DNA from: an uncultured Clostridia bacterium
Lineage (GTDB): Bacteria; Bacillota; Clostridia; Christensenellales; UBA1242
DNA: 58,445 bases
NCBI GenBank assembly: GCA_944350095.1
Contig: CALVOB010000018.1
Span: 1 to 58,445, forward strand
Reading direction: 5' to 3'
The notes under the pieces were generated by a model. It had not been told where the DNA came from, ran no database searches, and worked only from the letters and a program-made list of their open reading frames with translations. Below, one piece after another: positions 3,079 through 54,177 of this stretch. A program made the position numbers and the translations under genes. Positions within the stretch are counted from its first letter, which is position 1. Each line of letters opens with the position of its first letter.

Positions 3079-3840
3079 TCAACCCAAGCATATATCTAAT
3101 GTCATCATAAGCAAAAAACCTATTATAAACGAAACAGTACCCAACATGCTTTTACCTTCCGACTGACTTTCAGGCAAAAGTTCTTTTACTGTAACATAAA
3201 CCATGGCTCCAGCCGAAAAAGCAAGCAAATATGGAAGTATTCCCGTTATAGATCCTATCAAAAGTACTGTAATCATTCCACCGATTGGCTCTACAATACC
3301 TGAAATTGCGCCAAAAGAAAAAGCCTTAAACCTACTCATTCCCTCATTTCTTAAAGGAAGCGAAATAGTAGCTCCCTCTGGAATATTTTGAATAGCCATA
3401 CCTATTGCAAGTGTAAATGCAGTAGTTATTCCTGAATTTTCTATGCAAGCTAGTGCAAGTGCAAGCCCAACTGCCATGCCCTCGGGTATATTATGAAGTG
3501 TTACTGCTATAAAAAGTACCCCAGAGCGTTTAAATGTTAGATTTTTACGCTTTTCATAATAACTTAATATCTTTTCAACTAAAAATATAAACAAACAGCC
3601 TGCAACAAATCCTATTAGCACAGGAAAAATTGGTAAAACTCCGCTTTCAGTTGCCATATCAACAGCTGGAAGAATAAGGGACCAAACAGCCGCTGCAAGC
3701 ATTATACCAGAAGAAAAACCAAGACATAATTTATGAAATGTAGGTTTTATTCCTTTAACAAAAAAAACAACACTAGCCCCAAGAACTGTTGCTAGAAATG
3801 TTATGCCCGTTCCTATTAGTACATATAAATAAACATTCAT
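3079..3840 (-). CDS. zupT: ZIP-family zinc transporter
   Basis: Multi-TM protein with HNIPEGMAVG and QNIPEG motifs typical of ZupT. Confidence 0.8.
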   Translation of the reverse strand: MNVYLYVLIGTGITFLATVLGASVVFFVKGIKPTFHKLCLGFSSGIMLAAAVWSLILPAVDMATESGVLPIFPVLIGFVAGCLFIFLVEKILSYYEKRKNLTFKRSGVLFIAVTLHNIPEGMAVGLALALACIENSGITTAFTLAIGMAIQNIPEGATISLPLRNEGMSRFKAFSFGAISGIVEPIGGMITVLLIGSITGILPYLLAFSAGAMVYVTVKELLPESQSEGKSMLGTVSFIIGFLLMMTLDICLG

Positions 3841-3900
3841 AGACTGACCCCACTATCAGCCTATGAATGTTTTTGTTATTTGGTTAAACATATTTTAAAC

Positions 3901-3984
3901 GCACGGAAATGCCGAGCCGTAGTCTCGGCTGAAAACCGCAAAAGCGGTTTTCTAAATTTTGCAAAGCAAAATTTGTTTCCGTGC
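3901..3984 (-). repeat. Four-way-junction palindromic element (subfamily II copy)
   Basis: Outer stem GCACGGAAA/TTTCCGTGC encloses GCCGAG/CTCGGC, AAAACCGC/GCGGTTTT and AAATTTTGC/GCAAAATTT hairpins. It begins 14 nt after the stop of the 1883-aa gene. Confidence 0.7.
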
Positions 3985-3998
3985 CAAGTAAACAAAGC

Positions 3999-6900
3999 TT
4001 ACTGTTTTTTCCAACATGCATAAAGTGTGGTATCGCTTTGCACATTTTCAAGAATAGTAATTCCACTTTTAGTACTTATGTCATTAAATGGTTCTAATCC
4101 CCAACTTTCAGTTTTAAAGGTATTGGTTTTACTAATTCTTGTATATTTTCTTTGAGTTGTAGATACAAATTGAGTTAAATCTAAACTATCACCTTGAAGA
4201 ACTTTAACAGATTGAACTTCTGTTGGTGCACTTACTAAAATGCCTTTGCTTACCCAGCCTATTGGAATATACCATCTTGTATCAAATGTTATAGTAAAAT
4301 ATTCTCTTTCCAAAATTTCCCAATCAGCAATTATCGTTATATTTTTATTTGGCATTATAAAATCTATTTCAATGTCAGAAATATAATCAATAAAAGTATA
4401 ATCTATACGAATTTTTCCATCATCGTAAACATAACTATTTTGCAATGGTAAATTATAAGACTGCCCTTGATAAAGCGAAATTTCACTGTTTATAATTTCC
4501 CCATAATCTGATATAACTTTTAAAGTGTATTTGTTTCTTACAAACAACTTTAAATTTTCATCTGGCATAACTGAAATATTGTATTCATATTCAAAACAAT
4601 TATCTAAATAATATTTTGTTTCAGCATTTAATTTATCAAGCTCTGGGAGGATAATTTCTTCTCCACTTTTAATACGAACTGAATACAAAAGTTCTTCTCT
4701 ATCATAAATGCTTAATTCTTTTGTTATTTCTACACTTTCAACTTTCCAAATTGCAGTTAAGGTTTTATTCTGAGTTGGCATAGCGTTTGCAGAAAAAATT
4801 TGACCGCTTTCATCTTGCCAACCTTGGAAAGAATAAGTTGTTGTTATGTCACCATTTGTTTCTTGCTTAAAGCTATAAGTAGGAAGCTCTATATATTCAC
4901 CTTCTAGCTTTGTAATGTTTAAAGGTCCATCTATCCCACCCAGTAATGTTAAAGTTCTATAATATTCAGTTATAATATCCCACTTTGCATATAGGGTTAA
5001 ATCTCCCCTAGGCATTACATTTAATGTAAACTTTTCCTTATATTCTTGTGAATAATACCAACCTTGAAAATAATAAGATTTTTTTGTGATTTTGTCATCT
5101 AAAACAAAATTATTAATAGTAGGAATAGATATTTCTTCGCCCACTCCTGCTTCAATTGAAACGGGAGTATTTTGATATTCAGTTACAAAGCTTAACGTAT
5201 ACTTCTTTTCGCTTGCTAGTCCCCAATTTCCATCACTAGCCTCATAAAATTGATTTTCTTTATAAGGATATTCTTCTATAAAGTTATTAATATTAGAAAT
5301 ATCCAACTCATCACCAATATTAACTAAGCTTAAATCATTAGTCTTTAAATTTAATTCAAAGGCACTAGCAATTGGCATATAAATATCAAAACACAATTTG
5401 CTAAAATAATCTTTATTATCAACAATAGTTGTATAAAAATCTAATGTTGCACTATCTAACATATCATTGTTTGCAATTTCAGCCAAATTGATTACTATTG
5501 TTTGACAACTTTCATTATTTTTATAATCTAATAAGATTTTACTTATATCAATAGGCGTTTCTCGGTTCATAGATTTTTCTATCGCCTTATTTATTTCACT
5601 CATTATGTCGTCACTAAAACCAAAACCATACTGTAAAAAATAATACATAGGGTCTGCCATTAGTTCAACTGTTGAAATTTTTAATGTTTTCTCGTAAGTT
5701 CTACTAGCAAAAATTGTTTGATTAACAATATCTTTTCTATAAAAATAAACAAAATCATTTGCATAGTAAACTTCTAATTTTCTACTTTTAACTGATGTAT
5801 CTCCCGTTTTATATGGAACATCATTATTTACATTTATTTTTGTAAATCCTGTTACATTGGAACCTATTACAGGAATTTCAAAGCTTGCATATATAATTGG
5901 TTCTCCATCAATTAACTTAACATTAACTAGCATAGGAATATCCATATTTATATCAATTCCTATTACAGAGGCAACAACATTAATTGTGCCTTTAATTTGA
6001 AAATCATTTAAACTTGTTGTGTTTAAAATCGATTTTAACAACTTACTACTATTAGAAATATCTATAAAACTATCAAGTTCTGTTAAATATGGAACACTTA
6101 CAAAATTATTTTTGGTAATTACGGCATTAAAATATGTAGTTGAATTTATAAATATGTTGTTTAATTCTACGCTTTCTAATCCGCTTTCATTGGTATATAA
6201 AATCACATTCATTTCTTTTTGAATATCGCTAATTTTATCACCATTTAAATTTAATTTAAAAGCATTTCCCTCTATACTCATAGATTTAATTAATTCTAGC
6301 AAACTTAACGGATTGCCAAAATCAATTTCTGGAATTAAATTTTGAATATTATCAAAGTTTATATCTTCCCCAATACTATCAAGGAAAGGTATACTTTCTG
6401 GGTTTATTCCTAAAATTTGAAGAGCTAAACTTAAAATTTCTTTTAATGATGAAATACTTACACTAATTTTAAGTTCTTTATATTTTGCATATAAAACATT
6501 ATTTACAACATATATTTCAACAATTTCTTCATTAGCACTAACTTTACCATACAAAGTAAACTCTTTTTCAGCACTGAAAACTAAATTAATATTTATGTGT
6601 TGTAAATTACCATTATCATAAATTAATGTATCAGCAGTTATGTTAAAATTCTTTTCTTTGATAGTGTTTAAAATATTTGAAACAACATTTGTTATTTTAG
6701 TATAAGGTTGATAATTATCAAAATCAACATTTTCAAAAATTATTTTATCAAAATTAGTACAATTAATATCTATATTAAAATCATTAGAATTGTAATTTAT
6801 TTTGTTAATAAATTCGTCAAAATATAGTTTTAAAGATGAACCATTGTTTAAGTTTATATTGGTATAACCATTTATAGTTTCTATGTTTGTAATAAAATCT

Positions 6901-9650
6901 AAATTTAAAGAAGATAAATCAAATTCTTGTATGTTCAAATTTAAATTTGTATTAAAGGTATTATTTATATAAGCTATCAAATCGTTAATATCATCTGTAA
7001 GAATATAAACTTTTAAACCTGCAATATTCAAATAGAAAGTTTGATTTAAATAGTAAATTTCAATATTTAAACCTTTAAAAGTTGTGTTTATATAAGCTAG
7101 TATTTCATCTACAAAAGATATGGCATAGCTAACTTTTATTGTGTTTTTTTCTTCAAACATTGTAAAGTTGAGTGTTAAATCTCCGCTAATATAGCCCTTT
7201 TCAAAAGTGTTTTTAGTTGCAGAAAGCAATGGCAATATTTCTACAATATCTATATAATATTCATTATCAACTGTAACAGTTTTTTCACTACAAAGTGTAA
7301 TATCTCCGCTTAAATCTATATATTTTAGTTTAATATCATTTATTTTGTTATCTTTTAAATTTAAATATAAATTAAAATCTTCAAAAGTTATATTAAATGA
7401 ATTTTCATTGTAATTAATTATTAAATTTTTAATTATTTCTTCAATATTTTCTTTTGATATTTCATCTTTTAAATCTAATATCTTTTCTTTATAATTTGTT
7501 AAATTTAATTCAAATTCATTTTCAATAAATTCTATTAATTTATTAACTTCATTTAAATTACATGTTATTTTTAATCCATTAAATTCTGCAAAAATAATAT
7601 TATTTATTATTTTTATATTTACTATTAAATCATTATAGCTTAAAACTAAATCTGCATTTATTTGATTATTATTTAAACCTAGATAACCGGAAATTAAAAT
7701 GTTTTTGTAACTAAACAAGATATCAAAATTATAATTATTTGAATTTATGTAAGCAGTTATATTTTTAATTAATTCTTCTACATTTTTAAAATCAACATAA
7801 TCATTTTCAATAGATATGTTTAAAGGTTCGTTGTTTAAAACATTTAAGTTTAATTTTACATTTAAATCTTTGTATTGTAAATCAGCCCCTGTTATTACAT
7901 TTCCGTTATGATATAAACTAATTTCAGCATCAAATGTTTGCAAATATAATCCATTAACTAAGAATGTAAAGTTTTCTATTAATTTTTCACTATTTAAAAT
8001 TTCATCAAAAGACATGTCTTGCATATTTATTTTAAATAAATCTGCCATGTTATCTAAAAGTTTTTCTAAATCGTTAAAACTTGCTTTAAGTTTTATACCA
8101 TTAACATTTAAATAAATAGTATTTTCAAGTATAGTTACTTTTAAATCCAATCCTAAATAGTTTGTATTAAATATAGCTTTTATGCCATTTTCAAAATTTA
8201 TTGAATATTCAATATTAAGTTTTTCATTTAAATAATAAATCTCAATATTTCCTGCAAAATTTGTTTTAGAAATTGTGTTTAAAATAGGGTCAACAAATTC
8301 TAAAATATTGTTAGCATTTAGGTATTCTTCTTCAATTATATTTATTGTTTTGTTTTCATAACTAAATAATAATTGCACTTCACTGCTATTTATCATAAAT
8401 GAAACACTATTCAAAATTTCATCTTTAACATTTACTACAATATCAATATCATTTATGCTTATTGTTATCTCATCATCTACCCTAGTAATTTCTTTTATAT
8501 TTAAAATTGCTTTTAATAAATCACCTTGGTTTTCAATATTGTTAAAAGCATCTATTAAGGATAAATCTAAATCAACAAATTTTTTTATAGCATTTAAATA
8601 CTCATTATAATCTGCAATTTCAGCTTTAAACTTTAAATTCCCAAAGCCTGCAAAAAGCATTTCATTCTGATAAGCAAGCAGTAAATTTTTATTAAATATG
8701 TTAGTTGTAATTTGAGCTTTAAAATTATTACTTTTGTCTACAAATAAGTTTCCACTAAAATTTTGGCTTCCACAAACATTTATATTAACATCTATAAAAT
8801 CTTGTTTAAGTGTATTTGCTAAAACCTTTATTAGATTTGCACTTTCTGTTATATCAACAAAATTTTTATCTTGCGGTATTTCAATAATTTGACCTGCATT
8901 TATATCTTTAAGCCCTAACGATGCATTTATGAAAGTGTTTTCCAATTTTAAATTTTCTATATAAATTTTTGTTATGTTGTAATTTAAATCTGTTTGTATT
9001 TTTATTTCAATGTTATCCGAAACTTTAAGAGTTAAAAGCTTGTAATTTTCAAAACTTTCTTCAGAAAGCATACTTTCCAAATCATTTAATATTGACATAT
9101 CAAAATTTTCTATCAAACTATCTAAATCGCCAACTTCTATACCAAAAGCTTGCAAAGCTATTATTGTTCCAGAAATAAAGGAAGAAGCATTAAATGTATA
9201 ATTATAATCATTTAAAGATATGTAAATTTGATCATTTTTATAAAGCAAAAATAGTTCATAATTTTCACTATTATAACTAACATTTATATTAGCCTCAACT
9301 TCTGCACCTGTATAACCTTCATATAAAACAACTTTTAAATTGCCATCTATAAATGTATCTGAATTATTTTCATTATTAAGTGTTAAGTTTAAATCTGTTG
9401 AAAAATTTTGCATTGCCATCAAATTGTTTACAACATTAGCAAAAGCTGATGGCTCCTCTTCTTCTATATCTAATTTAGGCACATCAATTGAAGATGTAGT
9501 ATCTGTTCCTAAAACAATAACAAAACCAAAACAAAATGATAAAAGAACATACACCCCCATGTATGCAAAAAATCTTTTAAAAGAAAACTTTTTTTTCTTT
9601 TTTTCTTTCTTTTTTTCAATTTCCTCTACTCTTATATCTAAATCTTTCAA
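3999..9650 (-). CDS. Giant membrane-anchored surface protein (1883 aa) with about 7 internal modules and C-terminal Listeria-Bacteroides (Flg_new) repeats
   Basis: TTG start 6 nt after GGAG, with an N-terminal TM helix. A recurring ~170-aa module ends in IY(L/I)x(V/I)xG(L/I)K. About 5 C-terminal repeats follow the F-GW..MP..L-A-W pattern. Confidence 0.85.
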   Translation of the reverse strand: MKDLDIRVEEIEKKKEKKKKKFSFKRFFAYMGVYVLLSFCFGFVIVLGTDTTSSIDVPKLDIEEEEPSAFANVVNNLMAMQNFSTDLNLTLNNENNSDTFIDGNLKVVLYEGYTGAEVEANINVSYNSENYELFLLYKNDQIYISLNDYNYTFNASSFISGTIIALQAFGIEVGDLDSLIENFDMSILNDLESMLSEESFENYKLLTLKVSDNIEIKIQTDLNYNITKIYIENLKLENTFINASLGLKDINAGQIIEIPQDKNFVDITESANLIKVLANTLKQDFIDVNINVCGSQNFSGNLFVDKSNNFKAQITTNIFNKNLLLAYQNEMLFAGFGNLKFKAEIADYNEYLNAIKKFVDLDLSLIDAFNNIENQGDLLKAILNIKEITRVDDEITISINDIDIVVNVKDEILNSVSFMINSSEVQLLFSYENKTINIIEEEYLNANNILEFVDPILNTISKTNFAGNIEIYYLNEKLNIEYSINFENGIKAIFNTNYLGLDLKVTILENTIYLNVNGIKLKASFNDLEKLLDNMADLFKINMQDMSFDEILNSEKLIENFTFLVNGLYLQTFDAEISLYHNGNVITGADLQYKDLNVKLNLNVLNNEPLNISIENDYVDFKNVEELIKNITAYINSNNYNFDILFSYKNILISGYLGLNNNQINADLVLSYNDLIVNIKIINNIIFAEFNGLKITCNLNEVNKLIEFIENEFELNLTNYKEKILDLKDEISKENIEEIIKNLIINYNENSFNITFEDFNLYLNLKDNKINDIKLKYIDLSGDITLCSEKTVTVDNEYYIDIVEILPLLSATKNTFEKGYISGDLTLNFTMFEEKNTIKVSYAISFVDEILAYINTTFKGLNIEIYYLNQTFYLNIAGLKVYILTDDINDLIAYINNTFNTNLNLNIQEFDLSSLNLDFITNIETINGYTNINLNNGSSLKLYFDEFINKINYNSNDFNIDINCTNFDKIIFENVDFDNYQPYTKITNVVSNILNTIKEKNFNITADTLIYDNGNLQHININLVFSAEKEFTLYGKVSANEEIVEIYVVNNVLYAKYKELKISVSISSLKEILSLALQILGINPESIPFLDSIGEDINFDNIQNLIPEIDFGNPLSLLELIKSMSIEGNAFKLNLNGDKISDIQKEMNVILYTNESGLESVELNNIFINSTTYFNAVITKNNFVSVPYLTELDSFIDISNSSKLLKSILNTTSLNDFQIKGTINVVASVIGIDINMDIPMLVNVKLIDGEPIIYASFEIPVIGSNVTGFTKINVNNDVPYKTGDTSVKSRKLEVYYANDFVYFYRKDIVNQTIFASRTYEKTLKISTVELMADPMYYFLQYGFGFSDDIMSEINKAIEKSMNRETPIDISKILLDYKNNESCQTIVINLAEIANNDMLDSATLDFYTTIVDNKDYFSKLCFDIYMPIASAFELNLKTNDLSLVNIGDELDISNINNFIEEYPYKENQFYEASDGNWGLASEKKYTLSFVTEYQNTPVSIEAGVGEEISIPTINNFVLDDKITKKSYYFQGWYYSQEYKEKFTLNVMPRGDLTLYAKWDIITEYYRTLTLLGGIDGPLNITKLEGEYIELPTYSFKQETNGDITTTYSFQGWQDESGQIFSANAMPTQNKTLTAIWKVESVEITKELSIYDREELLYSVRIKSGEEIILPELDKLNAETKYYLDNCFEYEYNISVMPDENLKLFVRNKYTLKVISDYGEIINSEISLYQGQSYNLPLQNSYVYDDGKIRIDYTFIDYISDIEIDFIMPNKNITIIADWEILEREYFTITFDTRWYIPIGWVSKGILVSAPTEVQSVKVLQGDSLDLTQFVSTTQRKYTRISKTNTFKTESWGLEPFNDISTKSGITILENVQSDTTLYACWKKQ

Positions 9651-9652
9651 AA

Positions 9653-25905: not shown

Positions 25906-25978
25906 GCATTGCCTTTTGCCTGCAAAAGATAACTTGCATAAGCAAGTTGTAATTTTGACAAGGTCAAAATTGCAATGC
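25906..25978 (-). repeat. Four-way-junction palindromic element (subfamily I copy)
   Basis: Outer GCATTGC/GCAATGC encloses CTTTTGC/GCAAAAG, (AT)AACTTGC/GCAAGTT(gt) and AATTTTGAC/GTCAAAATT with no linker nt. It ends 2 nt from the stop of the lipoprotein gene. Confidence 0.7.
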
Positions 25979-32240: not shown

Positions 32241-33296
32241 CTATTCATTAAAATCTACAAGTTTTTTTGCTCTTGATGGATGTCTTAATTTCCTAAGAGC
32301 CTTGGCTTCAATCTGACGAATTCTTTCACGCGTAACATTAAACTCTCTGCCCACTTCCTCAAGCGTTCTAGGGTGAGAATCATCAAGACCATATCTTAGT
32401 CTTATAACTTTTTGTTCTCTTGGAGTTAAAGTTTCTATAATAGACAATAATTGTTCTCTAAGAAGATTTTGACTAGCAACTTCAACAGGCGATTTTATGG
32501 TTTCATCTTCAATAAAATCTGCAATTTTGCTATCATCTTCTTCACCAACAGGGCTTTCAAGTGAAATAGGGTCTTGTGCTATTTTTTGAATTTCACTAAC
32601 CTTATCTGCTGATATACCCATAAATTCAGCAATCTCTTCTGTTGTTGGGTCACGCCCTAATTTTTGAATTAATTGTCTTGTTGCACGAGTAAGTTTATGA
32701 ATTGTTTCAACCATGTGAACAGGTATTCTTATAGTTCTAGCTTGGTCTGCCATGGCACGAGTTATGCTCTGACGAATCCACCAAGTTGCATAAGTAGAAA
32801 AACGGAAACCTTTTGTATGGTCAAATTTTTCAACAGCTTTAATTAATCCTATGTTGCCTTCTTGAATTAAATCCAAAAACTGCATTCCAGAGCGTCCTAC
32901 ATAACGCTTTGCTATGCTTACAACAAGCCTTAAATTGCTTTCAGATAGTTTAGCCTTTGCATATTCATCACCCTCCAAAACTTTTTTAGCAAGTTCAACT
33001 TCCTCTTCTGGCGACAAAAGTGGCGCTTTGCCTATATCCTTTAAATACATTTTAACAGGGTCATCTGAATTTACTTGAACTAAAAGGCTGTCTAAATTCA
33101 TATCCTTTTCAGGCTCTAACGACTTTATAATTTTAATGCCATGCTCTTCTAGCCTTTTTATAAATTCGTTTGTTTCCTCCGCTGTTGCTTCAGCCTTAAA
33201 AAGTTTAGCATAAATATCTTCATCGTTCACAGAACCTTTTTTAGAACCAATATCAATAAATTTTTTTAGTTCCAACTGTAATTTTTCGTTAAGCAT
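32241..33296 (-). CDS. sigA: Primary RNA polymerase sigma factor
   Basis: [27 protein letters not shown] region 2.4/3 and a region 4 HTH. Overlaps the dnaG stop. Confidence 0.95.
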
Positions 33297-35064
33297 TAAA
33301 ATCCTCCAAATTTTTATTCTTCACTTGTTTTGTAACAGAGTTTAATTCCTCTAAAATTTTTTTTCTTTCTTCTTGCGAAGTAGCTTCTTTAAACATTGTT
33401 GTAAGTTTTGCTTGCTTGTCCTTTAAATAACTTTCTACTATAAGCCAAAGACATTCTTCAAAGTATTGCTTTTCATCTTTAATTTCTTCAAAGTTGTAAT
33501 TTATTATCTCTTTTATTTCTGGCAAGTTGTCAACATCATAATAATCAAAAAGCGTTGTTATATGAAGTTCCTTTCCACTATTCTTTCTTTCTTTTATAAG
33601 TGCATAAAGTGAACTTTGATTAGGGTCTTGAATTAATTTGCTTAAATCAAATTTAATTTCAGCAAATTCCTTTCTATGAAGCATGCAAGCCAAAATATAA
33701 TTTATTGCCTTTGTGCTAACATTTAAAGGCTTAACTTGCAAATCTTCTTTTTTTTCTTCTTTAACTTGTCCTAAAAGGTCTCGGCGAAGAACATCAAGCG
33801 GTACACCAGAAATATCTTTTATTACCTTTAAATAAACATCTTTTTCCGTTTCTGAACTTAATTCTCTTAAAACATTGAGTGCTTCGCTTACAAACTTTGC
33901 CTTTTCTGCCGGATTAGAAATGTTATATTTCTTTTTTACGGATAAAATTTTAAAATCAGTTGCTGGCACAGCATTTTGTAAAAGCTCTTTAAGCTTGTCC
34001 GCACCATACTCTTTTAGATATTCGTCTGGGTCCTTGCCGTCTGGAAGCATAGCAACTTTAACATTCAAGCCTGCCGTCTCTAAAATAGGTATTGCCCTTA
34101 AACTTGCCTTAATTCCCGCAGTATCGCCATCAAAACAAAGCACTATGTTTTCTGAATATCTTTTAAGCTCCCTAGCATGCTCGTAAGTAAAAGCTGTTCC
34201 AAGGCAAGCAACTGTCTGCCTAAAACCTGCCTTATGCATTGCTATAACATCTATTTGACCTTCTACAATTATTAAATTAGGTATTCCATTTGCTTGTTTT
34301 TCCTTTTTAACAAGGTTTATAGCATAAACAGTTTTACTTTTATCAAAAATAGGTGTAGACGGCGTGTTTTTATACTTTGCCATGCTTTGTCCTGTTAAAT
34401 CTCTAGCACTAAACGCAATACAATCGTTGTTTGAGTTTACTATAGGAAATATAAGCCTGCCAGCTAAAACATCATAGTAACCGCCTTTATTTCCACTTTC
34501 AATGAGCCCTGCTTTTTTTATATCCTCTAACTTTTTGCCTTTCCCCGTTAAATAATTGACTAAATCGTTATAATTTAAACTATAACCAATCTCAAAATTT
34601 TCAAGTTCTCGCCTGCCAAGCCCGCGTTTTTTTATGTAATCTTGTGCAAGTTTTGCCTCTTTTAAATATATGTTTTCCTTATAATGCTCTCGGGCCAAAT
34701 TTAAAATGCTAAGTAACTCGTCCTTTTCCTTTTTTCTTTCTAGAAATTTTTCATCACCAGAATACTTAGGAAGTTCAAGCCCTGCGTTTTTTGCAAGTTC
34801 TTCAACTGCATCAGGATAATCTAGATTTTCATATTTCATTATAAAAGTTATAACATCGCCAGATTCCTTACAGCCAAAGCAGTGATAATATTGGTCATAT
34901 TCATTAATGCAAAAAGATGGAGTTTTCTCGGAATGAAAGGGGCAACAAGCCCAATAATTTTTTCCTTTTTTCTCCACGCGTAAATATTTAGAGATAGTGC
35001 TAACAATTTCATTTTTACTCTTTAGTTTATCAATGAAATCGGAGTTAAATCCTTTACCTAACAT
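33289..35064 (-). CDS. dnaG: DNA primase
   Basis: [25 protein letters not shown] zinc finger and Toprim EGQIDV. Confidence 0.95.
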
Positions 35065-42731: not shown

Positions 42732-42810
42732 GCAAGGAAGTGCCGACTTTAAAAAGTCGGCTGGCGATGAAATCGCCTAAAAATTTTTACAAAAATTTTT
42801 ACTTCCTTGC
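42732..42810 (-). repeat. Four-way-junction palindromic element (subfamily II copy) abutting the capsid stop codon
   Basis: Outer GCAAGGAAGT/ACTTCCTTGC encloses GCCGACTTT/AAAGTCGGC, GGCGAT/ATCGCC and TAAAAATTTTT/AAAAATTTTTA. Confidence 0.7.
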
Positions 42811-44046
42811 TTAATTTCCTGCGTTAGTTTCTTGAATAGCAGTAACAATATCACTAAACGGACTAGAAACAGTAGCAGATATATTAGAAATTTTAGCCTG
42901 ACCATTAGGTCTATCGCAAATAAGGTCTGCGTATTTAACAAGAGTAGCTGAATATGTAGGATAACCAGCGTTTTGTTTGATAACTTTTCCGTCGTCACCT
43001 TCAAGCCATTTCCAGTCGCAAAGTTGATGAAGTGTAAAATCATTAGTATTAAGTAAATACATAGTTCCATCTTCAACAAATCTATCTGCAACAACAGGAA
43101 TACCGTTGTAAGTTATAGCTTTATATCCACCGCTAAGCTCACAAACATCTATGTTTCTTCTAAACTTAGTTAAATAATCTTGATAAGCTCTTCTAACCTT
43201 TGTTGAACAAGAAATAAAGTTTACTTCACTTCCGCTAGCCTGCTCTAAGAAATCTATTGCATCTTGAATTAAAATGTCAGAAATTTCTGTAGCAGTGTTA
43301 GAAACATAAGGGTTAAGCCAAGGATATTCGCTTTTTGTTAAACCATAAAGTGTAGCATCAGCACCAAAAATAGCACCTAATCCTGTAATTTCGTATCCCT
43401 TAGAATTTTGAACATAAATTTTAGAACCGCTTGCAATGCTAGCACTAAAAGAAGATTCAAAATCTAAATAAATCCTTTTGTTAGTTCTATCCACAAAAGT
43501 AACTCTATATCCACTTGCATCTTCAATTTTAGAATCTGCATTATAAATATCTACAACCATACCTTCTATAAAATTTCTTACATCGTCCATTTGAAGATAT
43601 TTTTCAGAATTAGAATAAACTTTTGTTGTTGTTCCAAGAAGACCTGTACCATCACCATAAAGCATTCTTCCAAGATTAAAACTACTAGCTTTTATTAAGC
43701 CTTCCATTTCATCATTAAGTAAATTTACAAATGCACCTGCATTATTTGCAGAAGCTCTAATAGCCTTATCAGAAATTTCAATTTTTCCATAAAGGTTTTT
43801 AAGTGATGTTTTGAATTGAACATAATTATTCCCCGCAGCCTTTGGAAGAGGGTCTGTTTCGTCACCAGCACCTATACCGCCGTTAATACCATAAGGTGCA
43901 AGTTTAATAATTTCTTTTCCCCACACATCTTGTGAAGATTGTTTAATTTTGCCAAGAAGAGGATTAGCATTTATATTAAGTTGATTTGCAACAACTCCAA
44001 GATAAACACTTTTTAACGCCTCGTTAGCACTTGAAATTGAAACCAT
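42811..44046 (-). CDS. Major capsid protein (HK97-fold candidate, 411 aa)
   Basis: Lies directly after the scaffold gene. Size and the LYGKIEISDKAIRAS..A.V..L..E..GL......N..R.LYGDGTG pattern resemble phage capsid families. Confidence 0.7.
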   Translation of the reverse strand: MVSISSANEALKSVYLGVVANQLNINANPLLGKIKQSSQDVWGKEIIKLAPYGINGGIGAGDETDPLPKAAGNNYVQFKTSLKNLYGKIEISDKAIRASANNAGAFVNLLNDEMEGLIKASSFNLGRMLYGDGTGLLGTTTKVYSNSEKYLQMDDVRNFIEGMVVDIYNADSKIEDASGYRVTFVDRTNKRIYLDFESSFSASIASGSKIYVQNSKGYEITGLGAIFGADATLYGLTKSEYPWLNPYVSNTATEISDILIQDAIDFLEQASGSEVNFISCSTKVRRAYQDYLTKFRRNIDVCELSGGYKAITYNGIPVVADRFVEDGTMYLLNTNDFTLHQLCDWKWLEGDDGKVIKQNAGYPTYSATLVKYADLICDRPNGQAKISNISATVSSPFSDIVTAIQETNAGN

Positions 44047-44055: not shown

Positions 44056-44658
44056 CTATTTAAAAAATTTCTCTACAATTTTTTTAGCATCATTTAAATT
44101 TTTAGGGTTAAATTCCTCTTTTGAAGAAAGTTTAGCCCCGTTACCACCAGAAATTACAGGCGGAGCAACTTTTAGTTCCTTTAAATAGCTTTGCAAAACT
44201 TGTTTTTTAATTTCTTCATTATTAAAAACATAAGAATTTAAAAAGGTTTTATCACTAACCAATTTTTCTGGTTCAACATATTTTTTCATGGCTATGCTAG
44301 ACCATGCAAGTTCCAAAGCATTTTCTTTAGATTTTAGTTCAGAATTATTTAAAATCTCCTCAGAAATTTCTTTGGAATATTTTTTAGCCTCTGGATTTTT
44401 TTCTAAAAAATTGGCTACGCGTCTATTCCAATCTTCTTCATTATAGATAGTTTTATTTTTTTCATTTTCCAGAGCACTTAATTTTTGACACTTCTTAGTA
44501 AACTCTGCCTGCAAATTGTTATAGGCGTTAAGTAAACTTTGTGCGTCTTTAAATTTTCCAAGGGAGCCATCACTTTCAAGATTTGCTGTGCCACTAATGC
44601 AATCCTTTTGCACCTCACTATCAAGATTTGGTTGTTCCCTAATAACATTTTCTTCCAT
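44056..44658 (-). CDS. Scaffolding protein
   Basis: Acidic helical 200-aa protein between portal and capsid genes. Carries the GKFKDAQSLLNAYNNLQAEFTKK motif common in phage scaffolds. Confidence 0.55.
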   Translation of the reverse strand: MEENVIREQPNLDSEVQKDCISGTANLESDGSLGKFKDAQSLLNAYNNLQAEFTKKCQKLSALENEKNKTIYNEEDWNRRVANFLEKNPEAKKYSKEISEEILNNSELKSKENALELAWSSIAMKKYVEPEKLVSDKTFLNSYVFNNEEIKKQVLQSYLKELKVAPPVISGGNGAKLSSKEEFNPKNLNDAKKIVEKFFK

Positions 44659-46499
44659 TATTTATTTTCTCCTACTATAGATAAAATTTGTTTATGCGTT
44701 CTTATATGTTTTAAAAGCTCTTCTTTTTGTTTCTCTGTAAGTTCGTTAGCCAAATAAAATGATGTATGCTCATCTATATGCAAACTATGATTGTCTATCT
44801 CACAAGGCTCTGGCATACTTCCTTCTAAAAGCATAGCATTTTCTTTACTAGCTCTTTTTGTGTGTTGCTCATTTAAATCTTGTGAATTTTCCCAAATTCC
44901 AAACCCTAAAAGCTCCAATGCTTTTATTCTCATACGGTTACTTAATTTTCCGTTTTCGTCATGAAGAAGACCAGCATTTAAAAGTTCAAGCACCATACTT
45001 CTACGCTGAGCCAAGCTTTCATTTATTTCATTTTCTGTTTCAAAAACAACTTCATCAGAAGTTATATCAGCTGATGTAAAGTATAAAACTTCAAGGTCAC
45101 CATTTTCACCTACAATCTTTAAAAGTCTAGGAAGAGTAGCAAATTGTTTGTAAAGCCTTAAAACTTGTTGCGCCATTCTTCTTAGTGCCTCTCTAATATT
45201 TTCAGCCGTAACTGAAATTCTGGTTTCATCTTGGTCAATCAAAAGTTGAAGAGCCGTTCCACTTAAACTATTAGTTATTGTGCTATCATTTAAAATATCA
45301 GAAGTTCCACTAACCACAGTAAACTCATTTAAAAGCCTTTCTTCTTCATAAGTAAAATCTAACGGCACACTACCTGTGCTTAAATATTTTGGAGCAGAAG
45401 AACCTTGCCTATAAACAAGCACTTTGCCAGGACATAAACCTTCTTCTTCTAAATTTTCTGTATCCACAGAGCCATCTTCTACTGTTAAAATCCCCATAGA
45501 AAGTCTGTTTAAAAACTCGTGCTTTCTATTTTTGATTGCATTATAAGAGCGTTGAAGTGGAATAACTCTTTCCACAATGCTAGTTCCCCAAAAACTACCC
45601 GTTTGGTCACAAGCAACTTGTCTAATAAATGGGAATCCTCTTTTGCCATCTTCACCATTAATAAAAGGCAGTTCCCCAACATACAAAAGTTTATCCCCTG
45701 CAACTATAACAAGTCTACCATTAGGATATTTAATAGTTGGAGCTTCATATCGTTCGATTACTATTGCATAATTATCTCGTGAAGAAGATATAACCTTGTT
45801 TACATTTGTGTTATATCCAAGCCCACCCATATTTCTAGATACACCATCTAGTGAAAAAACATTTAAGGTTTCGCCTTTAACATCTACACCCCACTTATTT
45901 TTAATTTCGTCTACATGATAAGCTTTTGCATGAATTAAACTTCTACAATCCTCGATATTTGCACAATTTACGCTTTCAGGGTATATTTCAAAAGGAGATA
46001 CCGCAGTTATTTCGATATCTCCCATAGTTATATTTTCACCTTTATTATTTTTTGCTAAAAAATTTCCTTTTGCACTATTCCAAATAATTTTATAAAAAGA
46101 AGTTCCACAAATTTCGCTCCACTTTGTAGCTTCTGTAATTACATTATAAACATTTAATTTGTTATATATAGAATTTACAATTTTTTTAGATATTTTAGCC
46201 GTTTTAATATCTCTTTCATCTCCCGATGATGGAATAACCGTCATAGTAGGACGAACTCTTTGAAGTTTTGCCATTCTTCTTTCTATTAGCGGTGCTATGT
46301 GATTATAAACTTCATGTTCTTGCCAAAAAAATTGTTTTTCAAAGTCAGTAATTTCGCCGTTATAACCAATGCCACAATATTGATTACCCATAACAAAATT
46401 CATATTTAATTGCCACTGTGCTTCAAAACTTCTTTTTTCTTCTTGTCTTTTTTTAAAGTCTTCTATAACTTCATTTACTAATTTTTCTTCAACTTTCAT
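44658..46499 (-). CDS. Portal protein (613 aa)
   Basis: Called from synteny (upstream of scaffold and capsid) and size. TAATG stop-start overlap with the scaffold gene. Confidence 0.6.
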   Translation of the reverse strand: MKVEEKLVNEVIEDFKKRQEEKRSFEAQWQLNMNFVMGNQYCGIGYNGEITDFEKQFFWQEHEVYNHIAPLIERRMAKLQRVRPTMTVIPSSGDERDIKTAKISKKIVNSIYNKLNVYNVITEATKWSEICGTSFYKIIWNSAKGNFLAKNNKGENITMGDIEITAVSPFEIYPESVNCANIEDCRSLIHAKAYHVDEIKNKWGVDVKGETLNVFSLDGVSRNMGGLGYNTNVNKVISSSRDNYAIVIERYEAPTIKYPNGRLVIVAGDKLLYVGELPFINGEDGKRGFPFIRQVACDQTGSFWGTSIVERVIPLQRSYNAIKNRKHEFLNRLSMGILTVEDGSVDTENLEEEGLCPGKVLVYRQGSSAPKYLSTGSVPLDFTYEEERLLNEFTVVSGTSDILNDSTITNSLSGTALQLLIDQDETRISVTAENIREALRRMAQQVLRLYKQFATLPRLLKIVGENGDLEVLYFTSADITSDEVVFETENEINESLAQRRSMVLELLNAGLLHDENGKLSNRMRIKALELLGFGIWENSQDLNEQHTKRASKENAMLLEGSMPEPCEIDNHSLHIDEHTSFYLANELTEKQKEELLKHIRTHKQILSIVGENK

Positions 46500-51692: not shown

Positions 51693-53120
51693 TTAATAAT
51701 ATTTTTTAGATAATTTTTTAATTAATTTTTCTTTATCTTTTTGAATGTCAGTTTTAAATGTTATTTTTTTAGGAATTTCAGGTCTGCTAATTATATAATA
51801 TCTAAGTTCATCTAAGGCATGGTCATCTTTTTTTACAGGATTATCCCCTTTACCCCAAAAGTATCCTTTTATTTCTCTAATTAAATTTGTGCAAGTTCTA
51901 AAAATAAAAAGTTTTGCCTTGCCCTCACCATCTTTTAAATAGCTTTTTACCCTTGAAATTCCAGCAAATAAATTTTTATCTACCTTAGGATTTGCTAGAA
52001 TTCCATTATCGTAAAAAAGTTCAACTACACTACGCTCAGCCGATAATGTCCTTTGAGTTGCTGCACTGTCTATTAAAGTAGAAATCATTCCATTACTAGC
52101 TCTGTGCCAATTTAATTTGTCTGATATTTCCTTTATTTTTTCTGCATGATAAATTATATCCCTTTTAGCTTCGTAATGCTCAGCAATTACATACACATTT
52201 CCATCATAATCTACAGCATACCAATGTGCAGACAACGGATTATTTAGTCCAGGGTCTATTGAAATATTATCTTGCCATTCATAAGGAATATCAAAAGGGT
52301 CTATTACATGAACATTTTCATCAAATTCACTATAAACTAAACCTCCATTAGCTGTAAATCGGCCATATTTTCTTGCTTCAAGCTCGCTTTCACTTAAAGT
52401 TGATGTTAAAAGTTTAATTTCATCTTTATCTAAAAAAGGATTATCTTCCCAATTCATTTGTTCGCACCAAATTTCAGGATTATTTTTTTCGTTTAAATAA
52501 ATTTCATTATAAACCCAAGTTAATCCTTTTAAAGGTGTCATAGTGCCAAATATATCACCTTTTTTATCAAAAACTCTCATTAAACATTCAAAGTATATAT
52601 CTTCTGGAGGTTCTTCATCAAACCAAACAAAATCTAAACTCGCACCTTGAAATTTATCTCTACCTTGGTCAGCACTTTTAAAATAAATTTTACTATTTAA
52701 TCCAGAAACATTTTTAATTATTATATAGTCTATAATACCACTTTCATATCCTTCTTTTCTCCCCTCAACCATGCAAACATCAACAATCCAATCAGCATTT
52801 AAATAATGCAGAATTTTACTTTGTGCAACTTCTCTTTGAACTTGTCTGGAAACAGAAACAACCCAACCTGTAACACACCTTTTATTTTTTCTGTATGGAT
52901 GAATTCCTCTTGCAAGCCAAATACATTCAACAGCTCCACATTCAGTTTTTCCGCTTCTATTTCCACCAAACACCCAACGATTTCTTTTTGGACATTTATG
53001 AAACAAAAGCTGTTTTTCATGGACAACTTTTCCTGTATTGTATCTATTTAAAGCGTTTTTAGAATATCGTTTTATAATTTCTTTATTTACTTTATCTAAT
53101 TTTTTTAATAACTCTTTCAA
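51693..53120 (-). CDS. terL: Terminase large subunit
   Basis: Walker A GGNRSGKT, Walker B LDFVWFDEE, C-terminal nuclease-like half. TTG start 7 nt after GGAGG. Confidence 0.85.
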   Translation of the reverse strand: MKELLKKLDKVNKEIIKRYSKNALNRYNTGKVVHEKQLLFHKCPKRNRWVFGGNRSGKTECGAVECIWLARGIHPYRKNKRCVTGWVVSVSRQVQREVAQSKILHYLNADWIVDVCMVEGRKEGYESGIIDYIIIKNVSGLNSKIYFKSADQGRDKFQGASLDFVWFDEEPPEDIYFECLMRVFDKKGDIFGTMTPLKGLTWVYNEIYLNEKNNPEIWCEQMNWEDNPFLDKDEIKLLTSTLSESELEARKYGRFTANGGLVYSEFDENVHVIDPFDIPYEWQDNISIDPGLNNPLSAHWYAVDYDGNVYVIAEHYEAKRDIIYHAEKIKEISDKLNWHRASNGMISTLIDSAATQRTLSAERSVVELFYDNGILANPKVDKNLFAGISRVKSYLKDGEGKAKLFIFRTCTNLIREIKGYFWGKGDNPVKKDDHALDELRYYIISRPEIPKKITFKTDIQKDKEKLIKKLSKKYY

Positions 53121-53139: not shown

Positions 53140-53224
53140 AAAGAGGCATTGCAATTTTGACTTCGTCAAAATTATAACTTGCTACTGCAAGTTATCTTTT
53201 GCAAGCAAAAGGCAATGCCTCTTT
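53140..53224. repeat. Four-way-junction palindromic element (subfamily I copy) upstream of terL
   Basis: 13-bp outer stem AAAGAGGCATTGC/GCAATGCCTCTTT encloses AATTTTGAC/GTCAAAATT, ATAACTTGC/GCAAGTTAT and CTTTTGC/GCAAAAG with zero linker nt. Confidence 0.7.
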
Positions 53225-53367: not shown

Positions 53368-54177
53368 ATGAAAATTTTATTGGTTATTGCATTAATTCTA
53401 ATAAATATTTTTACTTTTACTAATATGCCCGCCCAAGCCTCTTCGGACGAGATAATCTATGCACGAATAACCACAAACAATGTGTGTTTTTACTCTGCTC
53501 CATCGGAGAGTTCCGCCTTATTCTATATTCCAAATTCTTATTTTGTACAACTACTTGATAATGCTGGCGATGAATTTTACAGTGCACGCTATTCCGACCT
53601 ATTTGGATATGTGAAAAAAAGCGAAGTATCTCCTGTTAAAGGAAACCCTATAACCCCCTATGCAGAAAAAATTTCTTTTAGAGTTATATCGTTAAATGGT
53701 CTTGAACTTAGAAGCGTACCTAAAAGCACTTCACCATTTGAAATTGTTGACAATGTTCCATTTTTAGAAACAGACTTAGTTTACTATGGCACAATGTTAG
53801 GCGACTCCTTAGTTCCAGAATGCACAAATATTTGGTATTATTGTAAGTATCTAGATGGAACAAGAAGTTCAATGGGATATCTTTATTCTTTGTTTTGCGA
53901 CAAGTTAACAAATATTCCAACAAACACAGAAGTACTTGAAATTAGAACTGAACCAATATTTGTAGAAGAAGAGAATCCAGGCCCTAATAGTACTTTAAAT
54001 TTTTCCTCTCCTACACAAATTTTAATAGTAGTGGCAGTATGTTTGCCATGTTTACTTATAATATATCTTTTATTTAAACCTACTAAAATAGCTAATAAAG
54101 AAGTTGAGGCTAAAAATGCTAAAACTAAAAAGATAAAGCGTTTAAAAAGAAGCGATTATTACGAAATAGACGACTAA
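53368..54177 (+). CDS. Secreted SH3-like repeat protein with C-terminal TM anchor (269 aa)
   Basis: Signal peptide (..MPAQASS). Two segments resemble bacterial SH3 domains. C-terminal hydrophobic helix followed by a K-rich tail. Confidence 0.5.
   Translation: MKILLVIALILINIFTFTNMPAQASSDEIIYARITTNNVCFYSAPSESSALFYIPNSYFVQLLDNAGDEFYSARYSDLFGYVKKSEVSPVKGNPITPYAEKISFRVISLNGLELRSVPKSTSPFEIVDNVPFLETDLVYYGTMLGDSLVPECTNIWYYCKYLDGTRSSMGYLYSLFCDKLTNIPTNTEVLEIRTEPIFVEEENPGPNSTLNFSSPTQILIVVAVCLPCLLIIYLLFKPTKIANKEVEAKNAKTKKIKRLKRSDYYEIDD

Follow-up and report, generated by a model that had tools for sequence, protein, structure and literature searches.

The short spacer between the gene of a giant surface protein (1883 aa) and zupT raises the question of what an almost completely paired four-way junction might be doing there. 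A first-pass annotation suggested that the fold could serve as a conditional leader of the zinc transporter, with its middle hairpin and the adjoining UUUUC as a possible terminator. The analysis described here covers the whole stretch of DNA to which the locus belongs (58,445 nt, hereafter the window), from a lineage of uncultured human-gut Clostridia with roughly 30% G+C, and it points to a different answer. In our opinion, with a probability of about 0.7, the element (W1) is one copy of a dispersed nested-palindrome repeat of the REP/BIME, MITE or bcr1 kind, which would be maintained at the DNA level and is found in intergenic DNA and in one prophage.

The genes that flank W1 are both on the minus strand, and the element is located in the 3′ UTR of the surface-protein gene. 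All the parts of the junction that had been described by the first-pass annotation were found where it had placed them, and its distances to the neighboring genes were confirmed (Table 1). The three hairpins are perfect. In the sense of the transcript their order is reversed and the AT-rich hairpin leads, so that the element reads GCACGGAAA, H1 AAATTTTGC(TTT), H2 GAAAACCGC(TTTT), H3 GCCGAG(ACTACGG) and TTTCCGTGC. According to ViennaRNA, the minimum free energy and centroid structures are both the four-way junction in three settings, namely, RNA of the minus strand (-45.9 kcal/mol, z -8.3), RNA of the plus strand (-44.0 kcal/mol, z -7.9) and single-stranded DNA (-33.5 kcal/mol, z -8.5), and in each of them none of 200 dinucleotide shuffles folded as well. 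Its predicted strength is about the same in DNA and in the RNA of both strands.

Table 1. Positions of W1, its parts, its neighboring genes and other copies of the repeat. Coordinates are those of the window, except for the L128 and L132 copies, which belong to relatives.
Feature	Position	Strand	Details
W1, copy of the four-way-junction repeat (subfamily 1)	3901..3984	-	from sequence, folds and CM R1
W1 closing stem	3901-3909 with 3976-3984	+	GCACGGAAA pairs TTTCCGTGC, 9 bp
W1 hairpin GCCGAG/CTCGGC	3911-3929	+	7-nt loop
W1 hairpin GAAAACCGC/GCGGTTTTC	3931-3952	+	4-nt loop
W1 hairpin AAATTTTGC/GCAAAATTT	3954-3974	+	3-nt loop
W1 linkers	3910, 3930, 3953, 3975		one base each
W1 closing-stem 5′ arm, transcript sense	3976..3984	-	GCACGGAAA, pairs with 3901-3909
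W1 H1, AT-rich	3954..3974	-	AAATTTTGC-TTT-GCAAAATTT
W1 H2, A-tract/T-tract	3931..3952	-	GAAAACCGC-TTTT-GCGGTTTTC; bidirectional-terminator-like (A-tract, GC core, T-tract)
W1 H3, GC-rich	3911..3929	-	GCCGAG-ACTACGG-CTCGGC
Giant surface-protein ORF, 1883 aa	3999..9650	-	14 nt from stop to W1 (3985-3998)
zupT	3079..3840	-	Pfam Zip; 60 nt from W1 to ATG (3841-3900)
W2 (subfamily 2)	25906..25978	-	closing GCATTGC; hairpins AATTTTGAC, AACTTGC, CTTTTG
W3 (subfamily 1)	42732..42810	-	W1-like architecture; -39 kcal/mol, z -8.3
W4 (subfamily 2)	53140..53224	+	13-bp closing stem AAAGAGGCATTGC
L128 copy	15233-15318		
L132 copy	8627-8713		

W1 is one of several such junctions in the window. A descriptor scan, with minimum lengths of 6 bp for the closing stem and 5 bp for each of three perfect hairpins and with linkers no longer than 2 nt, found four of them only (beginning at 3901, 25906, 42732 and 53140). 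When the window was shuffled 40 times with its dinucleotides preserved, no such junction appeared. The same four copies, W1 to W4, were recovered by CM R1, a covariance model trained on members of subfamily 1 (relatives of the zupT copy). W2 and W4 were not part of the training set and scored 31.9 bits (E 3e-5) and 38.6 bits (E 7e-7), respectively, while W1 reached 91.8 bits (E 1e-19). The likeness between W1 and the copy at 42732, pointed out in the first-pass annotation, is real, as both have the same architecture and are related by the model (57.3 bits for W3). When CM R1 was run over 688 kb of unrelated genomes, the sole match was L011. An additional match of the model in the window, at 6327-6414 on the plus strand (22.7 bits), was discarded as chance, since it is AT-rich, is inside the giant gene and has no junction fold.

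The surroundings of these copies are diverse. W2, one of the two copies (with W4) that the first-pass annotation had missed, begins 2 nt past the stop of a 170-aa gene and is followed by rplU, with a canonical terminator in between. Two of the four copies, W3 and W4, are within a prophage. W3 begins 0 nt past the stop of the major head protein gene (42811..44046; phrog_14242, E 4e-55) and ends 9 nt ahead of the RBS of the next gene of the phage late operon. W4, for its part, occupies the divergent region that precedes the gene of the terminase large subunit (51693..53120, minus strand, assigned by Terminase_6N), antisense to this gene and 7 nt from its RBS.

Outside the window, at least ten copies were found at unrelated genes. 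They come from related MAGs and metagenomes and include, besides those of L128 and L132, the copies of L011, L016 (GCA_944345545.1), L020, L136, L137, L140, L151 and L153. In about 150 kb of DNA of the lineage there is approximately one copy per 10–20 kb, all of them extragenic, and the members of the family are confined to intergenic spacers, where they are found in both orientations. The genes beside the copies are functionally unrelated and include those for the phage major head, terminase, rplU, rpmA, the SCIFF peptide/maturase pair (with the copy between the precursor gene and the maturase), dapA, an ABC binding protein, PLD and an MBL-fold protein. Elements are 73–96 nt long, with a closing stem of 7–15 bp around three hairpins and linkers of 0–2 nt, and at least three sequence subfamilies share this one architecture. 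The inner part of the closing stem is conserved as CGGAAG(C)/(G)CTTCCG in subfamily 1, where no stretch is better conserved than CGGAA(G), and as GCATTG(C/T) in subfamily 2; an H1 arm, AAATTTTG(A)C, is common to both. In helix 1, pairs 5–8 do not vary among the 10 sequences compared, while the outer pairs covary.

Simple pattern searches were less specific. The hairpin pattern AATTTTGACNNNGTCAAAATT matched at least 114 stretches of a genome-contig collection, and among the matches listed the true members were L011, L016 and L020, the remaining ones being lone hairpins or other repeat families. The subfamily-1 pattern had 12 matches in a metagenome collection (three true members and one degenerate), the subfamily-2 pattern had none there, and neither the AATTTTGACNNNGTCAAAATT nor the subfamily-1 pattern found members in IMG/VR. 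BLAST of W1 against plasmids and phages gave no match. Two other identities were considered and rejected. A tRNA-like element is not indicated, as ARAGORN and the Rfam tRNA model give only tRNA-Leu at 872-957, and arms of 5–13 bp with loops of about 3–4 nt across the family are not those of a cloverleaf tRNA. H1 (AATTTTG..CAAAATT) was also compared with the CodY box, AATTTTCWGAAAATT, from which it differs in both half-site and spacing.

The reading of W1 as a metal-responsive, riboswitch-like leader that controls zupT has some points in its favor, as the very stable junction is only 60 nt from the gene and the element is found upstream of zupT where ZupT is 100, 91 and 89% identical. However, the three additional copies of the window, like those elsewhere, adjoin unrelated genes, with no association with a single pathway such as metal transport. 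Conservation at orthologous zupT loci was not observed either. The W1 site is filled where ZupT is 100, 91, 89 and 83% identical and empty where it is 78%. In L128 (83%), a 203-aa gene is found between the element and zupT. In L149/L150 (78%), the C-terminus of the orthologous giant gene is followed by only 60 nt, without the junction, and the zupT-proximal leader is conserved together with its own start-codon hairpin. In L148 (70%), the element is also absent. At orthologous loci, the element thus goes with the giant gene, at its 3′ end, and not with zupT.

The structure itself also speaks against a zinc leader. The 180-nt leader of zupT is predicted to fold as two independent modules, the junction and the start hairpin, with no alternative pairing between them of the kind that an anti-sequestor logic needs. 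Loops and linkers vary freely around perfect stems, so that no conserved unpaired core is left for a ligand. Additionally, Rfam 15, searched over the whole window at the gathering score and at E≤10, has no match on W1–W4, in agreement with the earlier remark that no known class of zinc riboswitch fits. A multi-copy repeat that is gained and lost between close relatives would not be a zinc-sensing switch, and we give this reading almost no credence; on the comparative data it is already contradicted. Judging from the orthologous loci, W1 is not a zinc sensor, and the leader and start-codon hairpin that are conserved at zupT are this gene's own. For annotation purposes, a false riboswitch or regulator lead is thereby removed from zupT, and the conserved start-codon hairpin becomes the candidate control element of this gene.

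Gain and loss are not limited to the W1 site. The W2 site is empty in relatives at 86% and 73% (L151/L152 and L153) and, conversely, L151 has a junction directly after rpmA that is missing in the window. Comparison of filled and empty sites for W1 and W2 revealed no target-site duplication or direct repeat, at a resolution limited by the divergence of the flanks, and the empty sites of close relatives show no visible replacement. The element is gained and lost between close relatives. W1 and W3, which are in one genome, are quite diverged; because copies within one genome have diverged in this way, most of them are old. The retention of the element at the giant-gene site down to 83% ZupT identity could equally be due to a selected function.

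In an alignment that was fitted to the structure, and in which some rows are orthologues and not independent copies, 18 of 33 stem pairs have changed on both sides and none on one side only, 97.6% of the cells are paired, and none of 500 shuffles reached these values of stem pairing and double change. Among 17 elements there are 603 Watson–Crick and three G-U pairs, and no pair has followed a one-sided GC/GU/AU path. This near-absence of G-U suggests a constraint on DNA, where both strands must fold. Conservation is restricted to the stems. The outer bases of the closing stem vary from copy to copy, yet they stay complementary; the three loops all vary from one orthologue to another and even from strain to strain, and otherwise identical copies differ in their loops. 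The orthologous copies of W1 show the same kind of compensatory changes. For instance, the L128 orthologue of H2 is AAAAAATCAC/GTGATTTTTT, with three compensated pairs with respect to W1, and H3 of W1 is a decayed form of the GCCGAGCC...GGCTCGGC present in orthologues.

This pattern does not resemble that left by a constraint on one RNA strand. If W1 is a dispersed nested-palindrome repeat, the folding constraint could act on single-stranded DNA during replication or transposition or, alternatively, intrastrand template switching might re-perfect the palindromes. Recombination, or an enzyme acting in trans, would account for the spread. Against such a repeat, a search near the copies for genes of a transposase, a RAYT-like protein or an integrase, which covered 30 ORFs of the window and about 60 kb of this genome, had no result.

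A literature search found no described four-way-junction repeat in Clostridia, and its closest parallel is bcr1, known from the Bacillus cereus group, a transcribed, MITE-like mobile repeat of ~155 bp with a cruciform-like fold that is kept by compensatory changes (PMC3184786). Both repeats have a low-G+C Gram-positive host, are dispersed in intergenic DNA, vary in distribution between close relatives and have a multi-stem fold with compensatory changes. This likeness is one of fold and published description. By contrast, bcr1 has about double the length, its stem bears two independent stem-loops, it is flanked by 5-bp direct repeats and its transcription is documented, whereas the present elements have three hairpins in a near-perfect four-way junction, no direct repeats and sequence-unrelated subfamilies.

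Other MITEs (Correia, RUP, BOX-type) are also small, non-coding and intergenic, the closing stem corresponds to their terminal inverted repeats, and presence/absence polymorphism is observed here at the W1, W2 and rpmA sites. They are co-transcribed with neighboring genes and have effects on mRNA fate (PMC3733652; see also PMC11602168). The present elements differ from them in that there is no target-site duplication, no matching parent IS was found by BLAST of plasmids and phages, and the interior is wholly palindromic. The differences between copies in the outer closing stem are not what a MITE that simply cuts or copies itself, with terminal inverted repeats that are fixed, would give.

The REP, BIME and REPIN elements, which are mobilized by RAYT transposases (IS200/IS605-like HUH enzymes), are high-copy extragenic palindromes that are often found at gene 3′ ends, have conserved stems and variable loops, and are recognized as folded single-stranded DNA. 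A REP is a single imperfect palindrome, 20–40 nt in length, one end of which bears a GTAG or CGTC tag that is unpaired (PMC3733652). Our elements, by contrast, are perfectly paired and have no conserved GTAG/CGTC tag at either end. In a REPIN, moreover, two inverted REPs produce one long hairpin, while here three hairpins are nested in a closing stem, and no RAYT gene was seen among the ORFs examined in the 58-kb window. Effects on mRNA stability and on termination have been attributed to REP, BIME and MITE elements (PMC3733652), and a role in supercoiling also to REP, BIME and REPIN (PMC3733652; see also PMC2817692 and PMC3116915).

A related explanation would be a site at which folded single-stranded DNA recombines, comparable to integron attC or an IS200/IS605-type end, whose DNA structure would be recognized by a recombinase or HUH enzyme. 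Structure is conserved over sequence across the subfamilies, the position directly past ORF stop codons is attC-like, the Watson–Crick-only constraint points to DNA, and the central part of larger attC sites can be branched. However, the stems are perfect, with no R/L core motifs (RYYYAAC/GTTRRRY), extrahelical bases or GTAG/CGTC tag, and the neighbors are core housekeeping genes and not cassettes. The regions examined contained neither an integrase nor a Y1 transposase, and we regard such a site as very unlikely.

Although the stems point to DNA, the position of the copies is not what a neutral DNA element would lead us to expect. Most copies are in sense, about 0–16 nt 3′ of a stop codon. 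Upstream-stop distances at nine independent sense-oriented loci are -1, 0, 2, 2, 10, 14, 35, 35 and 196 nt, i.e., the element starts at most 14 nt from the stop in six of the nine, and the ratio of sense to antisense is approximately 9:2 among independent loci. Stop-codon proximity and this bias are hard to explain by neutrality at the DNA level and hint at an RNA-level or translation-linked role.

One such role would be that of a lineage-specific compound intrinsic terminator, in which the closing stem or the middle hairpin, followed by a U-run, halts the RNA polymerase. GC-containing hairpins at gene ends are indeed terminator-like, the A-tract, GC core and T-tract of bidirectional terminators are present in the middle hairpin in subfamily 1, some copies are between convergent genes (L016 and L020), and T9 follows the closing stem of L128a, T5 that of L137 and TATTTTT that of L140. 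However, most copies, including W1 (where GUUUAAAA follows the closing stem), W2, W3, W4, L011 and L133a, have no U-run at this point. Canonical terminators coexist with the elements, one of them ~90 nt beyond W2. The RBS beyond W3 belongs to the same late operon, and W4 and the SCIFF-locus copies are upstream of genes. The middle hairpin of W1 is flagged by a terminator scan on the plus (antisense) strand only, and its UUUUC, short as a U-run, is itself paired in the transcript, which makes the terminator proposed in the first-pass annotation a weak candidate. In general, we consider this explanation unlikely, and partial termination may nevertheless occur at some other copies with T5–T9 (L128a and L137).

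The copies could also be a selected cis-acting RNA module that serves as a kind of punctuation, in which the transcribed junction would be a barrier to 3′ exonucleases or a processing signal for an RNase (RNase III/Y/P-like). It would set unequal stabilities for the cistrons on its two sides, such as the giant gene and zupT, the major head and downstream genes, or the SCIFF peptide and its maturase. The stop-codon proximity and mostly sense orientation described above agree with this proposal, and after the phage major head gene and between the SCIFF precursor and maturase genes differential expression is expected. At the equivalent position after the major head gene, related phages have plain hairpins, terminators or nothing, and no junction. 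Compensatory changes maintain the fold over the sampled divergence, and the two antisense copies, 7–12 nt upstream of an RBS, might provide a 5′ structure that stabilizes a processed mRNA. By contrast, a G-U content of 3/606 without one-sided GC/GU/AU paths is atypical of selection at the RNA level, the copies are found in either orientation, with W4 in a divergent promoter region, and the sites that are empty in close relatives have no visible replacement. For these reasons, we hold RNA punctuation only as a tentative possibility.

A dispersed repeat maintained at the DNA level may still have consequences for the transcripts that include it. The predicted junction energies of the transcribed copies are -28 to -62 kcal/mol, and the transcribed W1 junction would shield the mRNA of the giant surface protein at its 3′ end, while read-through into zupT would be weakly attenuated or insulated. 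It might also get in the way of ribosomes at termination. In E. coli, REPs within ~15 nt of the stop codon can stall terminating ribosomes. On the predicted folds, the 3′ UTR copy, when transcribed, is probably a barrier at the mRNA end or a weak attenuator.

It is also conceivable, although we consider it doubtful, that the recognized signal is the shape itself, that is, a closed, near linker-free, Watson–Crick-only junction. One possibility is a DNA element that would be read by a structure-specific enzyme, i.e., a new mobile or self-maintaining class acted upon by a Holliday-junction-binding or -resolving enzyme, or by an HUH-type enzyme, on DNA that is extruded or single-stranded. Alternatively, the shape would be RNA punctuation, cut by a structure-specific RNase at gene boundaries of both the bacterium and the phage.

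In any of these cases, the family appears to be undescribed, and its unit is a near-perfect four-way junction and not a single hairpin. The sharing of one architecture by unrelated sequences, the double, Watson–Crick-only changes and the position at stop codons, with copies also in a prophage, bear on how palindromes arise, stay perfect and are tolerated, and also on whether such repeats are used by hosts and phages to set mRNA boundaries. The elements are also a likely cause of assembly breaks and of false "structured RNA" calls in MAGs, and they are practical markers for strain-level insertion polymorphism. Between strains, W3 is kept in eight contigs with a loop indel as the sole difference, W4 has an identical copy in L173, and a strain variant of H3 of W1 has a C>T change that produces a G-U pair.

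The layout of a four-way junction that the first-pass annotation had assigned to positions 3901-3984 (copy W1) is confirmed, as every arm was found in the sequence and the ViennaRNA fold agrees. Inside a closing stem of 9 bp (GCACGGAAA/TTTCCGTGC) lie three perfect hairpins (6, 9 and 9 bp), with linkers of 1 nt each, and this structure is both the minimum free energy and the centroid fold in three ViennaRNA settings: minus-strand RNA (-45.9 kcal/mol, z -8.3 against shuffles), plus-strand RNA (-44.0 kcal/mol) and single-stranded DNA (-33.5 kcal/mol). No shuffled sequence folded as stably in any of them. In the transcript sense, the AT-rich hairpin (H1 of H1-H3) stands first. The distances proposed earlier also hold, the element beginning 14 nt past the stop codon of the giant surface-protein gene and ending 60 nt before the zupT ATG, and its architecture is identical to that of the copy at 42732-42810 (W3), as had been suspected.

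W1 is a copy of a repeat family and not a single-locus leader. A structural descriptor (closing stem ≥6 bp, three perfect hairpins each ≥5 bp, linkers ≤2 nt) finds four junctions in the window, W1 to W4, and none in 40 dinucleotide-preserving shuffles of it. A covariance model trained solely on W1 relatives, with W2 and W4 left out, recovers exactly the same four in the window when run with filters off, and the untrained copies are found in the orientation previously assigned (W2, E = 3e-5; W4, E = 7e-7). Over 688 kb of mostly unrelated genomes, the sole match of this model was the known member L011, and no Rfam family matches any of the four window copies, even at E<=10. The stems of W2 and W4 are identical (closing GCATTGC; hairpins AATTTTGAC, AACTTGC and CTTTTG), while their loops differ and their orientations are opposite. 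Additional members were obtained from collection scans (L011, L016 and L020 are among the matches listed) and from look-ups of orthologous contigs; their sources have ~27-36% G+C, and the labelled ones are all "Clostridia bacterium" MAGs. At nine independent sense-oriented loci, the distances from the upstream stop codon are -1, 0, 2, 2, 10, 14, 35, 35 and 196 nt. The gene preceding W3 encodes a major head protein (phrog_14242, E 4e-55), and W4 is antisense to the terminase large-subunit gene, 7 nt from its RBS.

Coordinates and settings of the junction copies and neighbouring features (window unless a related contig, L plus number, is named)
Feature	Position	Strand	Setting
W1	3901-3984	minus	past stop of giant surface-protein gene
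W2	25906-25978	minus	2 nt past stop of 170-aa gene; then canonical terminator and rplU operon
W3	42732-42810	minus	0 nt past stop of prophage major head gene; next RBS 9 nt on
W4	53140-53224	plus	divergent region upstream of prophage terminase large-subunit gene
L011 copy			between flavoprotein gene and dapA
L016 copy			past 217-aa gene convergent with PLD gene
L020 copy			past ABC binding-protein gene
L128 copy	15233-15318		between SCIFF peptide and radical-SAM maturase genes, antisense to both
L132 copy	8627-8713		as L128
L136 copy			as L128
L137 copy			no ORF of at least 60 aa within ~300 nt
L140 copy			10 nt past metallo-beta-lactamase-fold gene
L151 copy, third subfamily	2657-2735		directly past rpmA, overlapping final base of its stop codon
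L153 copy, third subfamily	4698-4779		35 nt past Zn-ribbon gene
L156 junction-like element	4534-4602		~340 nt downstream of phage major head gene
Giant surface protein (1883 aa, Flg_new repeats)	3999..9650	minus	
zupT (ZIP transporter)	3079..3840	minus	
zupT start-codon hairpin	3831-3872	minus	
Conserved stretch	3873-3888		before zupT hairpin
L128 203-aa ORF	9336-9947		between junction and zupT
Subfamily-2 tail, W2	25836-25905	minus	
Subfamily-2 tail, W4	53225-53295	plus	
Subfamily-2 tail, L016	6539-6600		
Subfamily-1-like segment	53225-53260	plus	right after W4
Terminator and leader	25700-25835	minus	before rplU-prp-rpmA
Prophage-like block	~35.4-54.7 kb	minus	abuts dnaG/sigA (33289..35064, 32241..33296)
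Terminase large subunit	51693..53120	minus	prophage block
Portal	44658..46499	minus	prophage block
Major head	42811..44046	minus	prophage block
HTH/sigma-r4 protein (180 aa)	54174..54716		prophage block

The first-pass annotation had also proposed that W1 could serve as a conditional, zinc-responsive leader of zupT, a reading that the comparative evidence refutes. ZupT homologues form a graded series of identity, and contigs of the 91, 89, 83, 78 and 70% lineages were compared. In the 91% and 89% lineages, a junction immediately adjoins the giant-gene stop codon, with closing stem GCGCGGAAG; H3 is longer there (8-10 bp), and none of the three loops is the same. In the 83% lineage (L128, GCA_944345545.1), the junction lies 16 nt past this stop and is followed by T9, and an ORF without Pfam match intervenes before zupT. 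In the 78% lineage (L149/L150), the giant-protein C-terminus is clearly orthologous (..TLYACWYKQ*) and the 60-nt gap between both genes holds no junction; in the 70% lineage (L148), another gene and an ordinary terminator precede zupT. Judged from this series of orthologous loci, the junction belongs to the giant-gene 3′ end and is dispensable for zupT, and the difference at the W1 site is an insertion or else a deletion polymorphism. For the 180-nt zupT leader, two independent modules are predicted, with no alternative pairing.

The 50 nt adjoining zupT are conserved in all lineages down to 78% identity, including the one with the empty site, and in them the start codon is paired within an 18-bp hairpin (AAACATTCATAGGCTGA..TCAGTCTATGAATGTTT). 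This hairpin (AAACATTCATAGGCTGA-TAGTGG-GGTCAGTCTATGAATGTTT) sets a GGGG/GAGG Shine-Dalgarno within or beside its loop, and a single pair of it has changed from G-U to U-A among the orthologues; the preceding stretch, TTTAACCAAATAAC, is likewise conserved. The start-codon hairpin, rather than the junction, is the candidate element for control of zupT, at translation or as an operator.

Presence of the repeat also varies at other sites. At the W2 locus, relatives (170-aa protein 86% and 73% identical) are without a ~145-nt block composed of the junction and a ~70-nt tail that is loosely common to W4 and L016, and they still have the terminator as well as the leader of rplU. The reverse is seen past rpmA, where a junction is present in L151 and missing from the window. 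Between strains, W1 and W3 hardly vary, the exceptions being a loop indel and a C>T change by which a G-U pair arises. As the tail belongs to the block absent at empty W2 sites, subfamily 2 may move as a unit that extends beyond the junction. The tail is AT-rich and ~65-70 nt long (..GGAAAT..TG.AAAATA..TAAATT.TT.TG.TTTGC.ATATTT..), with an extended -10-like sequence (TGCTATATT in W4, TGCAATATT in W2). Right after W4, GGGCGGAAATTTTGCAAAAT resembles the start of the subfamily-1 closing stem and H1 (CGGAAxxAAATTTTGC) and may be the remnant of a decayed subfamily-1 copy. Past the W2 tail there is a canonical intrinsic terminator (AAAATGCTTGA-CAT-CAAGCATTTTTTTT) and then a structured leader, well conserved in relatives, on which Rfam makes no call at gathering score. 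The annotated start of the 122-aa L21 ORF is probably ~63 nt too early, since L21 has 101 aa in relatives.

The stems evolve under strict pairing. When ten subfamily-1 members, some of them orthologues, were fitted to the structural model (alignment A6), standard pairs filled 97.6% of cells, and both sides had changed in 18 of 33 pairs and one side alone in none; these figures come from a structure-fitted alignment with orthologue rows included. None of 500 shuffles reached any observed pairing measure, and sliding the partners by one column reduced pairing to ~51%. The stems of 17 elements contain 603 Watson-Crick pairs and just three G-U pairs. Loops and linkers are variable even among copies with identical stems and, as no unpaired position is conserved, the pattern does not look like that of a ligand-binding RNA. 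The usual GC-GU-AU path is absent, which argues that both DNA strands must stay self-complementary. We infer that the constraint would act at the DNA level, through the folding of single-stranded DNA or through template switching that makes the palindromes perfect.

The family consists of nested palindromes that are dispersed through intergenic DNA and polymorphic for insertion; it comprises several subfamilies and occurs in chromosome and prophage alike. It would be a non-autonomous element of the REP/BIME, MITE or bcr1 sort; no transposase was found among the gene neighbourhoods examined, no target duplication in the filled/empty site comparisons at W1 and W2, and no REP tag on the junction copies. 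The ~155-bp bcr1 repeat of the Bacillus cereus group is the closest precedent: it is transcribed and mobile, and compensatory changes preserve its cruciform-like fold (PMC3184786). The ecology and proposed mRNA effects of REP/BIME/REPIN-RAYT and MITEs are also shared (PMC3733652; see also PMC2817692, PMC3116915 and PMC11602168), but the junction repeat lacks both the short single hairpin with GTAG/CGTC tag that defines REPs and the target duplication of MITEs. An attC site, for which R/L boxes are missing and no integrase was found among the ORFs examined, and a tRNA-like element were rejected. The repeat therefore belongs with structured intergenic repeats and to no named family (bcr1 was compared by description). 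Literature searches found no account of a comparable four-way-junction repeat. The family is apparently undescribed so far; its structure is unusual, and the questions it raises are tractable.

Effects on mRNA may accompany the repeat. As most copies appear to be co-transcribed at gene 3′ ends, a transcribed junction in its predicted fold (~-28 to -62 kcal/mol across elements) would block 3′ exonucleases and attenuate read-through and, when placed 0-16 nt past a stop codon, may hinder terminating ribosomes. W1 would then stabilise the giant-gene message or insulate it from zupT. At the post-capsid position of W3, related phages have ordinary hairpins, terminators or nothing, which fits an mRNA-end role. 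That the junction was selected for an RNA function is a rather doubtful explanation, which we keep as a serious rival mainly because copies lie close to stop codons and are biased towards the sense orientation. The family is probably a palindromic repeat in its biology, with mRNA effects that are secondary.

Related and look-alike repeats were also observed. The GC-rich third subfamily (closing ..GCGAG/CTCGC; hairpins GGCGC, GAAAGGGC and GCCCAGTG/GCTTGGGC), which is found in close relatives, has no sequence in common with subfamilies 1 and 2 apart from the middle hairpin's A-tract/T-tract layout. In an IMG/VR phage with a 71% identical major head protein (L156), an AT-rich element with closing stem AAAATTACAA and hairpins CAACC, AATTTTG-CTTG-CAAAATT and GTTTTT is possibly a distant member. 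A separate repeat, which consists of one long hairpin (GGTTGGAAAAGAATTAAATTTTGAC-NNN-GTCAAAATTTAATTCTTTTCCAACC), is present in other low-G+C "Clostridia" MAGs (L012, L014, L042, L052, L068, L074, L080 and L115 among the matches listed), and its tip, AAATTTTGAC, equals the H1 hairpin of the junction family, which suggests a recognition module common to several lineages. The AATTTTGAC-NNN-GTCAAAATT hairpin also occurs, among the matches listed, in two further unrelated families: a ~120-nt multi-hairpin element of Saprospiraceae MAGs (L058, L088, L101, L123) and, in gut Clostridia MAGs of ~50% G+C (L021, L030, L032, L044, L069, L079, L087, L104), a long palindrome (GGATATTTCTCC...GGAGAAATATCC) flanking an AGGAGG-ATG-like core. 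Finally, the prophage-like block also encodes large unknown proteins of 969 and 1115 aa, and the relative L153 carries phage holin genes on the corresponding side of dnaG.
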